Below, piece after piece: positions 56,289-60,817 of a stretch of DNA of 64,000 nucleotides. Where the stretch lies: the sequence record LR597660; one strand, given 5' to 3'. The notes below the pieces were generated by a model, which saw only the letters and a program-made list of their open reading frames with translations, did no database searches and had not been told where the DNA came from. The translations under genes and the position numbers were made by a program. Each line of letters begins with the position of its first letter. The stretch's first letter is position 1. This stretch comes from Escherichia phage T4_ev151.

Positions 56289-56292
56289 CAAT

Positions 56293-56310
56293 GGGGACCT
56301 TTCGGTCCCC
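56293..56310. terminator. bidirectional hairpin GGGGACC-UUUC-GGUCCCC between convergent gene 54 and the alt-side block
   Basis: 7-bp GC stem; T-run on the plus side (ATATTTTTATTT). Confidence 0.6.
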
Positions 56311-56316
56311 ATATTT

Positions 56317-56607
56317 TTATTTACGGAATGAAATGAAAGCAGAAACTGAAGCAACTAAACTGTCTTCAATATAAACTTCAATTTTTACCGGAGCTTCTGA
56401 CTCAAATTTACCTGTTACTACACCCTGAAAAATACTTTCAGTTTGTTCTGGCTTTGAAAAATTTTCAGAAGGAAAAATTCCGAACTTTTTATCTGTTCCA
56501 AAAATTTTAATAAATTCATCGTAAACTGCTTCATTAAAAGCATTATCAGCAGGAATAACGCCTTCAACTACAAGTTCTTGACCCAAAAAGCGCAAAGAAG
56601 ATTTCAT
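56317..56607 (-). CDS. alt-downstream hypothetical protein (alt.-3-like)
   Basis: 96-aa ORF, last gene of the minus-strand alt block. Confidence 0.5.
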   Translation of the reverse strand: MKSSLRFLGQELVVEGVIPADNAFNEAVYDEFIKIFGTDKKFGIFPSENFSKPEQTESIFQGVVTGKFESEAPVKIEVYIEDSLVASVSAFISFRK

Positions 56608-56639
56608 TTTGTGTTCCTCATGTTATGTCAGTAAGACTA

Positions 56640-57025
56640 CTATAACACAACACGAGGGACTTGTAAACTACATTTTGAACTTTTTAGTACGCGTAATAGG
56701 CATGCGTCGATTTTATACTGTTTCATTGTTTGAAGAGCAGTATCAAAAACAGCATTAATGACACCAATTGGATTTCCACCCAAGTTTTTAAGCTTAACTA
56801 ATGATAGTTTCTCATTAACACCTATCATTACGATATGCATCATTTTGTCGCCTGGTTTAACGTTTTATCTGTATCACCGCCAGAGGTGTATGTACAAAAT
56901 CTAAATCCAGGAAGCACGCTTTCTTCGCCGGCTTGAATAGCAAAAATTTGTGGTATTTTATGCTTAGGATTTAAGTTAACAACCGGCGCCGAAGCGCCGT
57001 CAAATAATTCTGTAATAAGTTCCAT
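56640..57025 (-). pseudogene. decayed duplicate of the alt N-terminal region (two frameshifted fragments, first retains the capsid-targeting sequence)
   Basis: Fragment 1 (56840..57025) MELITELFDGASAPVVNLNPKHKIPQIFAIQAGEESVLPGFRFCTYTSGGDTDK aligns to Alt residues 1-55; fragment 2 (56640..56843) MMHIVMIGVNEK...KQYKIDACLLRVLKS aligns to the following Alt residues; a 1-nt deletion relative to alt at the junction. Confidence 0.65.
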
Positions 57026-57028
57026 GAT

Positions 57029-59116
57029 TTATCCTTGAACGAACTTGTAAGGCATATTTGTAATATCTATGCAAGACGCAATAATTCCAAGAGATGATTC
57101 TACTTTCTGTTTAACATTTGACGAAACAAATGATGCAAAGTCAACTCTATTTTCTATATAGCCTGTCATTGTAACCAATTCACCAGTTTCCATTAAACGG
57201 TCTCCGTCATAGATTACCGATTCGGTGAGTTCTTCTGTGGTCATAACTTCAGCTTGAATGAGTTTTGTATTATTAGATGTTGTTCCGTCATTATTAGAAG
57301 CATCAGTTATTTTATTAACTTTGACCATCAATCCACGCGGTAGAATAACTTCAGCTTCAGTTGCTATTCCGAGATTTCCTGGATATACAACATTAACTTT
57401 ATGTGCGCCGTCAATAGCCCATCCTATTTGAACTTTAACGTATTCAGGATTTTCTTTATACGCTCTTATTTCGTTTGGATTAATAGTTATTCCTTCTTCA
57501 TTTTTATCAACTGTTAATTCATTGCGAGCTTCTGGTTCTAAAAGACCAATACCAGCATGTGTAATTCCAAAACGTCCAAAAATGATAGGAGTTAAAGAAG
57601 TAGATACAAAATTTCTGAAATAGAATACTTTATTTTTAACTAGTGCTTCGTATATAGGAGCAGTCATACTTTGAGCACGATAAACTGTAATGCCTTCTGG
57701 TATACGATCACCATTTTCAAAAGCATAATCTAAATTAGTTATAGCAGCTTCAATTTCTTTTTCACTCATTACTTCATAACGTTCTGGATCATAACGACCC
57801 AAAAGAAGATTATTGATGTCAGTATACCCTGAACCACAATACTCTCTAATGCCGCGCTTTTGTGATGGAGTATATTTAGAACCATCACGGGCAATAGTAA
57901 TATCAATCATTGGACCTGCACCAATTCCAGAAAAACTATAAATCATTCTTTTGAGGAATTTAGTTTTTGCTGCGTTCCAGGAATTTTTAGTCATTTCTTC
58001 CCAGACTTCATCTGGCTGCCCTTTACGAGTTTTATTATGTTTATCAAGCCAATTATCTTTATATTCTTCAAAGAGTTGATTAACAGCTGCTGCGTATTTC
58101 TCTAAACATTTTATTGAAGTAGTTGGTTCATTTTTAATTGCATTAAAAATTACTTCTTTAATTTTTTCTGAAACTTCACCGACTTGACTCATTGGAAAGA
58201 ATTTATAATCATAGTGAAGTTCATCTGCCGTTCCTTCAGCAATAATTTTTGCTGCCTTTGTTTTAGAAGCTAATGAATTAATTCCAATTTTCATTTCTTC
58301 TGCTTCGGGAATTAAAGGTGCAGTAGCTGGTTTATTAAAATTAGCTGCTGTAGATTCATACTTCTGGAATAATTCACTTTCAAATCTAGAAGATTCCAAT
58401 GATTGACTTTGCGCAATTGCTCTACGGGAAATTTTAACTTTAACGATTACAGCTTGGTCAGAACGTTTATCATTTTCTTGTGCAATAGATGCTGCAATTG
58501 CCTCATTTTTAGTTACTTGAGCTCCAGTATCTTTATTGATGTAAACATCGCCGACTTTCGATTCAACTTTAGTAAAGAGCTCGGTACTAATTTCCGGAAC
58601 TCCTGGAATGTCTTCTAGTGATACATTTTTGCGATGTATAAGAATATATGCATACTTTTTATCATAATCCCAGAGTTCCTTAAGAAGGACGTATCTGCCA
58701 CCTGAACGGCTACGGATAAGTCTATCAGCAATAACTTGAATTTGTCGAGCTTGACCAGCGGTTTTAGACTTAAGAATACGAAGCATACAAGCATCAATTT
58801 TATACTGACGCATTGTTTGCATTGCAACAGTAAAAACTGAATTGATATAATTAATTGGGCTTGGACCAAGACCTTTTAATTTAGCAATTGAACCTTTAGC
58901 AGTTAATGTAAAAGGAACAATGTGCATCATTTTATCGCCCATCTTTAAATCGCGATTAGTATCACCTCCAGATGTATAGGTACATAAACGAAAGCCTGGT
59001 TGTTCAATTGCATCATCAACATGAACTGAAAAAATTTGCGGTATTTTCTTCTTTGGATTTAAGTTTGTAATCGGAAGAGTAGTATCTTCGTCAAATAATT
59101 CTGTAATGAGTTCCAT
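57029..59116 (-). CDS. alt: Alt, capsid-packaged ADP-ribosyltransferase
   Basis: 695 aa; N-terminal capsid-targeting sequence MELITELFDE; synteny between gene 54 and ligase. Confidence 0.9.
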   Translation of the reverse strand: MELITELFDEDTTLPITNLNPKKKIPQIFSVHVDDAIEQPGFRLCTYTSGGDTNRDLKMGDKMMHIVPFTLTAKGSIAKLKGLGPSPINYINSVFTVAMQTMRQYKIDACMLRILKSKTAGQARQIQVIADRLIRSRSGGRYVLLKELWDYDKKYAYILIHRKNVSLEDIPGVPEISTELFTKVESKVGDVYINKDTGAQVTKNEAIAASIAQENDKRSDQAVIVKVKISRRAIAQSQSLESSRFESELFQKYESTAANFNKPATAPLIPEAEEMKIGINSLASKTKAAKIIAEGTADELHYDYKFFPMSQVGEVSEKIKEVIFNAIKNEPTTSIKCLEKYAAAVNQLFEEYKDNWLDKHNKTRKGQPDEVWEEMTKNSWNAAKTKFLKRMIYSFSGIGAGPMIDITIARDGSKYTPSQKRGIREYCGSGYTDINNLLLGRYDPERYEVMSEKEIEAAITNLDYAFENGDRIPEGITVYRAQSMTAPIYEALVKNKVFYFRNFVSTSLTPIIFGRFGITHAGIGLLEPEARNELTVDKNEEGITINPNEIRAYKENPEYVKVQIGWAIDGAHKVNVVYPGNLGIATEAEVILPRGLMVKVNKITDASNNDGTTSNNTKLIQAEVMTTEELTESVIYDGDRLMETGELVTMTGYIENRVDFASFVSSNVKQKVESSLGIIASCIDITNMPYKFVQG

Positions 59117-59139: not shown

Positions 59140-59147
59140 TATTTATA
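59140..59147 (-). promoter_or_regulatory. T4 late promoter TATAAATA (minus strand) for alt
   Basis: Exact TATAAATA on the minus strand about 24 nt upstream of the alt ATG. Confidence 0.5.
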
Positions 59148-59152
59148 AAATT

Positions 59153-59170
59153 AAAGGCCCGAAGGCCTTT
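59153..59170 (-). terminator. hairpin GGCC-UUCG-GGCC (extended AAAGGCC...GGCCUUU) on the minus-strand transcript
   Basis: GC stem with UUCG tetraloop and flanking A/U runs, after the small ORF and before the alt promoter. Confidence 0.5.
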
Positions 59171-59357
59171 AATAATCTATTGGTAAGAGAGTACGATATA
59201 TTTCAAACTTTGGACCTTTTTCATAAGCATCAAAAGTTTCTGTGAATTTATTATAAGCATATGCATCTATAAATTCAATCATGATTTGTGATACAGAAGT
59301 AGAAACATCTCCACCTTCTTTTTGAGCCACGACAATTGTTTCTAAGTAAGCTTTCAT
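59169..59357 (-). CDS. small hypothetical protein between ligase and alt
   Basis: 62-aa ORF whose start overlaps the ligase stop. Confidence 0.45.
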   Translation of the reverse strand: MKAYLETIVVAQKEGGDVSTSVSQIMIEFIDAYAYNKFTETFDAYEKGPKFEIYRTLLPIDY

Positions 59358-60817
59358 AGACCAGTTACCTCATGAAAATCACCAAATACATCTTCGAATG
59401 TATTAGCTTTAGTTTTATCTTCACGTAAACGAATCGCAATCGGAAGAAATAATTTAACGTAATCAGTGCGGCCATCAGATTTTAACCAACCGTTGCATTC
59501 GCACTCTAGAATTTTTCCAATATAATAATTTTGGTTTTCCATAATGCGAGTACGGTCAAGTTCATGTGATTTTACACCGGCTTTATCTTTTAAGCCTGAA
59601 CCAGCATTCACCTTAATTTTTCCACACTCTGACTCAAGAATAAATCCACCTGCTTTAGTAGGGTCTTTACGGTGAGGATAAATTCCTACAATTTTTAAAT
59701 CAACATCAATTACTTCTTTAAATTTATAGAGATTTTTTGAACGAGCATTTTCCCATAATCCATCGATATTTTTGAGAATAATACCTTCAAGACCTTGGTC
59801 AATATACTTTTTATAAATTACCTTAGCTTCATCTAGGTTATTTACTACTTGGTTTTCAATTAAAATTACTTTATCATAACCTGATGTCATTTGTTCTAAT
59901 TTAGAAAAACGGACATCATATTTCAAACGAAATGTAGGAAGACCGTATATTTCTATCAACGGTACATAATCCCAGACCTGAAACTTCATGCATTGTGCTT
60001 CTTTTTCAGAAATTGTTCCCTTTAAAGATTTATTGGCGATGCCATTAGAAGCAGTACGTGATTCAGCTACTTCGGCGAATTCTTTAGCTTTACTATTTTC
60101 AGGATAAGCATCAAAAAGAAAATCTAGGCCTTCTGGCTCCTTTTTAACTTGCTCATGGTATACCAATTCGCCATCAATTAACACACCTTCTGGATGAATC
60201 TGGCGGGCTTCAGCGGTCATTTTGATTAACTCTTCCTTAAGAAGATCTAATCCTAGGTATTCATTACCAGCTCGTGATAAAAGACGAACATCATCTAATT
60301 CATCACCTCTGACTTCAGCAAAGCACCGAGCCCCATCAGCTTTTAACTGGGCAAAGGCTGGAAATTTGATATTCTTATTAATGCCTTTTTCATCATAAGA
60401 ACTTGCAAGCATTTGAGGTTGTTCAGGAATTAAACCTGGCCAAACTTTGTTTGCAATAGATACTGAAGCACCACATTCAAGGTCTCGCATCATCACTCGA
60501 CGCAAAACTTCAACATCATCTTTTTTACCATCGGTGATATATCCAGTTAATTCCTCAATTGCTGCATTTCCAGTCAATTTCCGAGTAGCTAACGTGAATT
60601 CAATAAAATCAAGCATATCGGTAAGAGTCAACATTCCAAAACTCTGGGTAGCAATACCAGGTTTAGGCCATTTCTTGATATAATACTGTAACCCACGAGA
60701 ATAAGTCAGACGATATACTCGTTTAAGCAATTCATTATCTTTATTCTTTTCAAGAATTGCTTGCTTCTGCTTAGTTGAACCAATAGATGCTATTTCGTTC
60801 AGAATTTTAAGAATCAT
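59354..60817 (-). CDS. 30: ATP-dependent DNA ligase gp30
   Basis: 487 aa; N-terminus MILKILNEIASIGSTKQKQAILEKNKDNELLKRVY as T4 DNA ligase from memory; adenylation motif KADGAR. Confidence 0.95.
   Translation of the reverse strand: MILKILNEIASIGSTKQKQAILEKNKDNELLKRVYRLTYSRGLQYYIKKWPKPGIATQSFGMLTLTDMLDFIEFTLATRKLTGNAAIEELTGYITDGKKDDVEVLRRVMMRDLECGASVSIANKVWPGLIPEQPQMLASSYDEKGINKNIKFPAFAQLKADGARCFAEVRGDELDDVRLLSRAGNEYLGLDLLKEELIKMTAEARQIHPEGVLIDGELVYHEQVKKEPEGLDFLFDAYPENSKAKEFAEVAESRTASNGIANKSLKGTISEKEAQCMKFQVWDYVPLIEIYGLPTFRLKYDVRFSKLEQMTSGYDKVILIENQVVNNLDEAKVIYKKYIDQGLEGIILKNIDGLWENARSKNLYKFKEVIDVDLKIVGIYPHRKDPTKAGGFILESECGKIKVNAGSGLKDKAGVKSHELDRTRIMENQNYYIGKILECECNGWLKSDGRTDYVKLFLPIAIRLREDKTKANTFEDVFGDFHEVTGL

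Follow-up and report, generated by a model that had tools for sequence, protein, structure and literature searches.

The alt.-1/alt.-2 region of Escherichia phage T4_ev151, a probable pseudogene derived from a second full-length alt paralogue

We analyzed a 64,000-nt stretch of DNA from Escherichia phage T4_ev151 (record LR597660; hereafter, the window), with emphasis on the feature at positions 56640-57025. A nucleotide search of phage records gave Escherichia phage vB_EcoM_FJ1 as the closest relative (98.8% over the region), and the window comes from a T4-like member of the genus Tequatrovirus. Two short frames, here called fragments 1 and 2, lie between alt and the alt.-3 homologue on the same strand, and the whole gene order is that of T4 (Table 1). 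Genes 54 and 48 are encoded on the plus strand and converge with the alt unit. The Alt protein of the window carries the Pfam domain ADPrib_exo_Tox at residues 378-627 (E=1.3e-35). Its length is polymorphic, with 695 aa in the window versus 682 aa in T4 (L004:4455-6503), and lengths of 682, 683, 695, and 697 aa across relatives. The alt.1 homologue, the start of which overlaps the ligase stop, was matched along its full length by PF24647, 'Phage blade protein' (E=7.5e-29).

Table 1. Features of the alt locus in the window, and reference entries for the intact parent gene and for the Alt.-1 peptides
Feature	Coordinates or identifiers	Strand	Basis
DNA ligase	59354-60817	-	ORF
alt.1 homologue, 62 aa, between ligase and alt	59169-59357	-	ORF
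Late-promoter-type motif TATAAATA, ~24 nt 5' of the alt start	59140..59147	-	Exact match
alt, 695 aa, intact ADP-ribosyltransferase, older paralogue	57029..59116	-	ORF; T4 synteny; Pfam
Fragment 1, 61 aa, T4 alt.-1 orthologue	56840..57025	-	ORF, BLASTP, identity to Alt2
A4 run, A5 in intact genes; splits the stump into two frames	56863..56866	-	Alignment
Fragment 2, 67 aa, T4 alt.-2 orthologue	56640..56843	-	ORF, BLASTP, identity to Alt2
CTAAAAAGT, single surviving repeat copy	56679..56687	-	Alignment with intact genes
Former Alt2 TAG stop, now read through in another frame	56668..56670	-	Alignment
Sigma-70/T4-early-type promoter of alt.-3, TTTACA-17-TATAGT with upstream TG	56639..56667	-	Within fragment 2 tail
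alt.-3 homologue, 96 aa, DUF5498, intact	56317..56607	-	ORF; Pfam; T4 synteny
Bidirectional terminator hairpin separating alt.-3 from gene 54; ends the alt unit	56291..56312	.	
Alt2 examples	T6 EcT6_00197; G50 YP_010070023; RB18 AXF42505		
Intact Alt2 locus extracts	L005:3501-5558 (Yersinia phage ZN18); L002:4501-6558; L023:151-2208 (T6)		
Tryptic peptides of Alt.-1	MELITELFDGASAPVVNLNPK or LFDGASAPVVNLNPK; IPQIFAIQAGEESVLPGFR; FCTYTSGGDTDK		

The coordinates given in the initial annotation were exact, and the two frames share the four nucleotides ATGA. The comparison with T4 that it suggested identified fragments 1 and 2 as orthologues of the annotated T4 genes alt.-1 (NP_049810, 61 aa) and alt.-2 (NP_049809, 67 aa). 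The T4 genes occupy the same position between alt and alt.-3, have the same lengths and the same 4-nt overlap, and share both the A4 run and the deletion junction at CTAAAAAGT. Fragment 1 is identical to T4 Alt.-1 at 58/61 residues (95%), the differences in fragment 1 being N17T, D53N, and T60I, and fragment 2 is identical to T4 Alt.-2 at 67/67 residues (100%). The core of the finding is thus already known, as T4 annotation explains alt.-1/alt.-2 as a broken alt duplicate. The excerpted T4 RefSeq note describes the two genes together as reflecting an old duplication of the 5' part of alt that acquired a stop codon, and Nolan et al. (2006; PMC1524935), the sole match to a literature search for 'alt.-2', describe them as a duplicate of the start of alt. 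According to the description in the same study, tandem copies of alt, both full-length and truncated, likewise adjoin alt in phages of other genera (RB49ORF183c, 44RRORF188c, and 44RRORF187c). Our comparison adds the parent gene, a full-length paralogue occupying the same slot in related phages.

To describe the relationship of the fragments to alt, we performed the nucleotide alignment proposed in the initial annotation. Positions 57025-56673 of the window aligned with the first 355 nt of alt (59116-58762), with 239/349 columns identical (68.5%) and a local score of 105 versus 11.4 +/- 1.4 for 300 shuffles (z=65). At the protein level, BLASTP matched fragment 1 to Alt residues 1-62 (58% identity, E=3e-23) and fragment 2 to residues 63-117 (62% identity, E=1e-21). 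The homology to Alt was therefore real, although BLASTP placed its limit at residue ~117 rather than at ~125 as first described. Compared with T4 Alt, a packaged ADP-ribosyltransferase, the fragments share the MELITELFD N-terminus and ~60% identity over residues 1-117, and lack both the catalytic domain and the C-terminal propeptide. Neither fragment gave a Pfam match, the ADP-ribosyltransferase domain included. The two frames are separated by a 1-nt deletion, as the initial annotation had noted. The run is A4 at 56866-56863 and A5 in intact relatives, and it lies seven codons upstream of the fragment 1 stop.

The identity of the parent gene emerged from searches with the repaired 128-aa frame. 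A translated search matched hundreds of Tequatrovirus records, in which residues 1-116 were matched at ~96% in one piece, and this piece was annotated as belonging to an 'Alt-like RNA polymerase ADP-ribosyltransferase'. Phage G50 contains an intact gene of 2058 nt (685 aa) after alt, followed by the same 96-aa ORF and the terminator. We use the label Alt2 for this second full-length Alt-like paralogue in the slot after alt. An intact Alt2 was also found in the same slot in the Yersinia phage ZN18 and in T6, RB18, NBG2, A2, JB75, ES19, and KMB42, and the alt.-3 homologue sits 3' of Alt2 whether that gene is intact or deleted. Over the first 348 nt (116 codons) of Alt2, the nucleotide identity of the window stump was ~96-97%, versus 68.5% to alt. 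The initial annotation was thus right to see a decayed relative of alt, but the parent was a full-length, diverged second paralogue. The stump shares with intact Alt2 the locus and the coupled start after alt, but lacks the 1,699 bp encoding residues ~117-681, which include the whole ADP-ribosyltransferase domain, and carries an additional frameshift.

To estimate how widely Alt2 is retained, we searched the phage GenBank collection with the whole gene. Among the 497 records matched, 400 (~80%) contained at least 80% of the gene, and the remaining records, T4 among them, matched only at nt 1-348. In the converse search, a query spanning the short form was covered over at least 80% of its length in 90 of 502 records. 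A scan of IMG/VR with the reconstructed peptide returned 8 loci, too few for a census.

The intact Alt2 contains ADPrib_exo_Tox (PF03496) at residues 416-620 (E=2e-20), a range falling within the segment deleted from the window. Its similarity to Alt is uneven, with 64% identity over residues 1-255, no alignable sequence in the middle, and 35% identity in the catalytic domain. It keeps Alt-like terminal motifs (MELITE at the N-terminus and QLEE near the C-terminus). The unalignable middle region suggests that the targets of Alt2 may differ from those of Alt. A recent report (PMC13600099, 2026) describes two paralogous Alt-like proteins in Tequatrovirus phages, and our literature search returned no study of Alt2 targets. 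A search of solved structures yielded none for Alt or its N-terminal region, the only matches being to distant toxin ADP-ribosyltransferase domains.

Next, we compared the ends of the stump with the intact genes. In the alignment, the segment missing from the window extends from codon ~117 of Alt2 to 15 nt before its stop. The 9-bp direct repeat CTAAAAAGT is present at both edges of this segment in intact Alt2. Its 5' copy (codon ~114) was perfect in 6/11 intact genes and contained 1-2 mismatches in the rest, and its 3' copy (15 nt before the stop) was perfect in 11/11; the two copies were spaced by 1,699 nt in 10/11. The stump retains one copy, and its tail comprises the last 12 nt of Alt2, the former stop, and downstream intergenic promoter DNA. 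As 1,699 equals 3n+1, the surviving codons run out of frame past the former TAG and end eight codons later. The break at the end of fragment 2, which the initial annotation had attributed to a second frameshift, therefore exists, but it marks where 1,699 bp were deleted out of frame, and no small frameshift is involved. Fragment 1 corresponds to Alt2 codons 1-53 followed by eight out-of-frame codons. Fragment 2 corresponds to Alt2 codons 62-116 and ends in an 11-residue tail, SKCSLQVPRVVL, encoded by the old 3' end and by intergenic DNA; this tail (…CSLQVPRVVL) translates DNA that is intergenic in intact phages. The repeat geometry points to replication slippage or microhomology-mediated recombination as the most likely origin of the deletion. 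Phage N2 carries the deletion with A5 kept and contains an unbroken ORF of 128 aa.

The decay of the stump was examined in 16 aligned remnants, a non-random sample of ~90. The A4 frameshift was present in 14/16 (the window, T4, and 12 others), the exceptions being N2 and Salmonella phage SG1. Codon 6 of fragment 1 was changed from GAA to TAA in half of the remnants (8/16: FJ1, HY03, F1, ACG-C40, slur14, SP21535, F26, and SG1); the 61-aa frame is thus not maintained among relatives, being open in the window, T4, RB59, e11/2, and F25. Further, independent lesions were also seen: HY03 carried a 7-nt duplication that shifts the frame of fragment 2, F1 had lost 9 nt, F25 had lost 1 nt at the junction repeat, and ACG-C40 had lost the stop codon. 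SG1 keeps the A5 run without a frameshift yet has the codon-6 stop, and N2 has A5 and no stop. The A-run and codon-6 lesions are therefore not strictly nested, which implies recombination between remnants or recurrent change of the A run.

The variants also differed in kind between remnants and intact genes. Over codons 1-115, the remnants (HY03 left out because of its insertion) showed 12 silent, 9 replacement, and 1 nonsense variants, versus 38, 1, and 0 in the comparison set of eleven intact genes (Fisher p=6e-5). Restricted to codons 1-53, the counts were 6, 7, and 1 in the remnants versus 10, 0, and 0 in the intact genes (p=0.006). The N-terminal region of intact Alt2 is thus under strong purifying selection, unlike that of the stump, where the codon counts indicate no detectable constraint.

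These observations (a syntenic intact homologue, disabling lesions, and relaxed selection with secondary lesions) characterize the region as, in all likelihood, a pseudogene: the 5' stump of the full-length second paralogue Alt2, any peptide from which would lack a selected function. Comparison of the genomes showed how it arose in three steps. An old tandem duplication produced alt and alt2, both of which T6, RB18, and most Tequatrovirus phages keep back to back, followed by alt.-3. The lineage of T4 and the window then lost the 1,699 bp between the CTAAAAAGT copies, leaving 116 codons that end inside the early promoter of alt.-3. The product of this step was a 128-aa ORF, the state surviving in N2. 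Subsequent loss of one A from the A5 run generated the 61-aa and 67-aa frames known in T4 as alt.-1 and alt.-2. The start codon, ribosome-binding site, and MELITE propeptide would have been inherited rather than maintained, and any peptide would be a by-product.

To examine whether the stump could be expressed, we considered the transcription signals of the locus. The motif TATAAATA upstream of alt is probably the source of a late transcript running through alt into the remnant, a function assigned from the T4 late-promoter consensus. The hairpin between alt.-3 and gene 54, annotated as a terminator at the equivalent position in the G50 and e11/2 records, was the only convincing terminator, and no minus-strand terminator-like hairpin was found between alt and the stump. 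The alt transcript therefore probably extends through the stump. The T4 RNA classes agree with this: in the time-course data (Wolfram-Schauerte et al., 2022; PMC9697503), alt.-1/-2 RNA belongs, like that of alt, to the middle class, and alt.-3 RNA and protein are classed as early. The early-type promoter in the fragment 2 tail fits early expression of alt.-3 in T4, and the record of phage Lutter has a 'promoter' annotated at the equivalent position. In the published T4 data, alt.-3 yields an early, well-detected protein; in the window, its own promoter falls within the tail of the alt.-2 frame. As the initial annotation had stated, fragment 1 has a start coupled to alt: its ATG lies 3 nt past the alt stop (GGATAAATCATGG), with AAGGA upstream. 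Given this good ribosome-binding site, the position of the start, and the open frame, translation of fragment 1 is plausible.

On this basis, the 61-aa frame could instead encode a functional small protein, coupled to alt on the late transcript and brought into the prohead core by MELITE, with gp21 cutting after E6. We consider this reading unlikely, along with the further proposal that the protein is then packaged or injected, or competes with Alt for packaging sites. In its favor are the frame being open in both the window and T4, its translation signals, the presence of alt.-1/alt.-2 RNA during T4 infection, and retention of the ITE-6 cleavage motif of Alt, at which gp21 removes the six N-terminal residues of Alt, together with 63 C-terminal residues at LTE-619 (PMC5694885). 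The propeptide with its gp21 motif (I/L-x-E) is identical to that of Alt and, like the short propeptides of IPIII and IPII, ends in a hydrophobic-x-Glu site, but the capsid-targeting sequence (CTS) of IPIII is 10 residues long and experimentally defined (PMC9026906; Mullaney and Black, 1996, as reviewed), versus 6 residues for the Alt-type propeptide of alt.-1, the resemblance being one of sequence only. Capsid targeting has been demonstrated for the IPIII propeptide only, and, according to reviews, is not a conserved feature of the other core proteins. The reviews disagree on whether the 6-residue propeptide of Alt is a CTS (PMC9026906, PMC9958956), and PMC5694885 treats it as CTS-like; for Alt itself, the role would be an inferred one. 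The MELITELFDG sequence noted in the initial annotation is thus kept in the window as an Alt-type propeptide, its targeting function being unproven.

Several lines of evidence argue against a functional 61-aa protein. Half of the sister remnants carry the codon-6 stop, and replacement variants are in excess over codons 1-53. Every 'signal' of the stump is identical in the intact parent, and as MELITELFDG is identical in intact Alt2, no selection is needed to explain its presence in the stump. Moreover, the frame retains just 53 residues of the parent, from a conserved N-terminal region of ~255. Among the rows listed for the T4 time-course proteome, which include quantified values for Alt and Alt.-3, the label-free quantification (LFQ) intensity of Alt.-1 (P39495) was zero in 24/24 intensity columns, a value that concerns a small protein, infected cells rather than purified virions, and T4 rather than T4_ev151. 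The supplements of a T4/SPN3US virion mass-spectrometry paper made no mention of alt.-1. The claim that a ~61-aa capsid-targeted peptide could still be made was therefore unsupported. For the phages in which the frame is open (the window, T4, and RB59), the corresponding scenario, in which a peptide coupled to late alt mRNA would enter the prohead, be trimmed at ITE-6, and act as a small packaged or injected peptide or as a competitor of Alt packaging, appears very unlikely.

A weak function of fragment 2, whether as a small protein translated by re-initiation at the ATGA overlap or as DNA retained for the early promoter of alt.-3, is more doubtful still. The frame is fully identical to T4 Alt.-2, and the remnants showed few replacements within it (3 silent and 2 replacement variants versus 25 and 1 in intact genes), a difference from intact genes that was not significant (p=0.06) in a small sample; low diversity is, however, expected in any case because the deleted clade is young. 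The alt.-3 promoter does occupy the last 29 nt of the frame, but it lies downstream of the deletion junction and could account for the persistence of the tail alone, leaving that of the preceding 340 nt unexplained. The lesions of HY03 (frame-shifting), F1, and F25 also argue against this reading, and Alt.-2 (P39494) was not found among the rows listed in the T4 proteome table.

A partial duplication, in which a tandem copy of no more than the first ~350 nt of alt later gained a stop and a new start with no full-length parent, agrees with the wording of the T4 RefSeq note, as excerpted, and of Nolan et al. (2006), and with the end of homology to alt itself at residue ~117, but is extremely improbable given that the piece is far closer to the intact 2058-nt gene at the same locus than to alt, that its tail comprises the last 12 nt, the stop codon, and the downstream promoter of Alt2, and that a 9-bp direct repeat, one copy of which is left in the remnant, borders the missing 1,699 nt.

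Two explanations of the split frame itself were rejected. Programmed frameshifting or transcriptional slippage at A4 was discarded, given how short the run is and that the intact genes just carry A5, and a sequencing artefact was discarded as the frameshift is common to 14 independent genomes.

As first submitted, the finding matters little, as it re-describes T4 alt.-1/alt.-2. With Alt2 as the parent, T4 and its close kin, including the phage of the window, naturally lack, through deletion, a second Alt-like ADP-ribosyltransferase kept by about four fifths of the genus. Views of host take-over that are based on T4 may therefore overlook an activity found in T6-type phages. In addition, the locus offers a textbook case of microhomology deletion and stepwise pseudogene decay, with sampled examples of the intact gene, the intermediate (N2), and stumps that have decayed further. 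Additionally, in phage Elenatom (L030:151-2194), a 14-nt deletion in the region of the catalytic domain splits an otherwise intact Alt2 into two ORFs, an independent and recent inactivation in another lineage.
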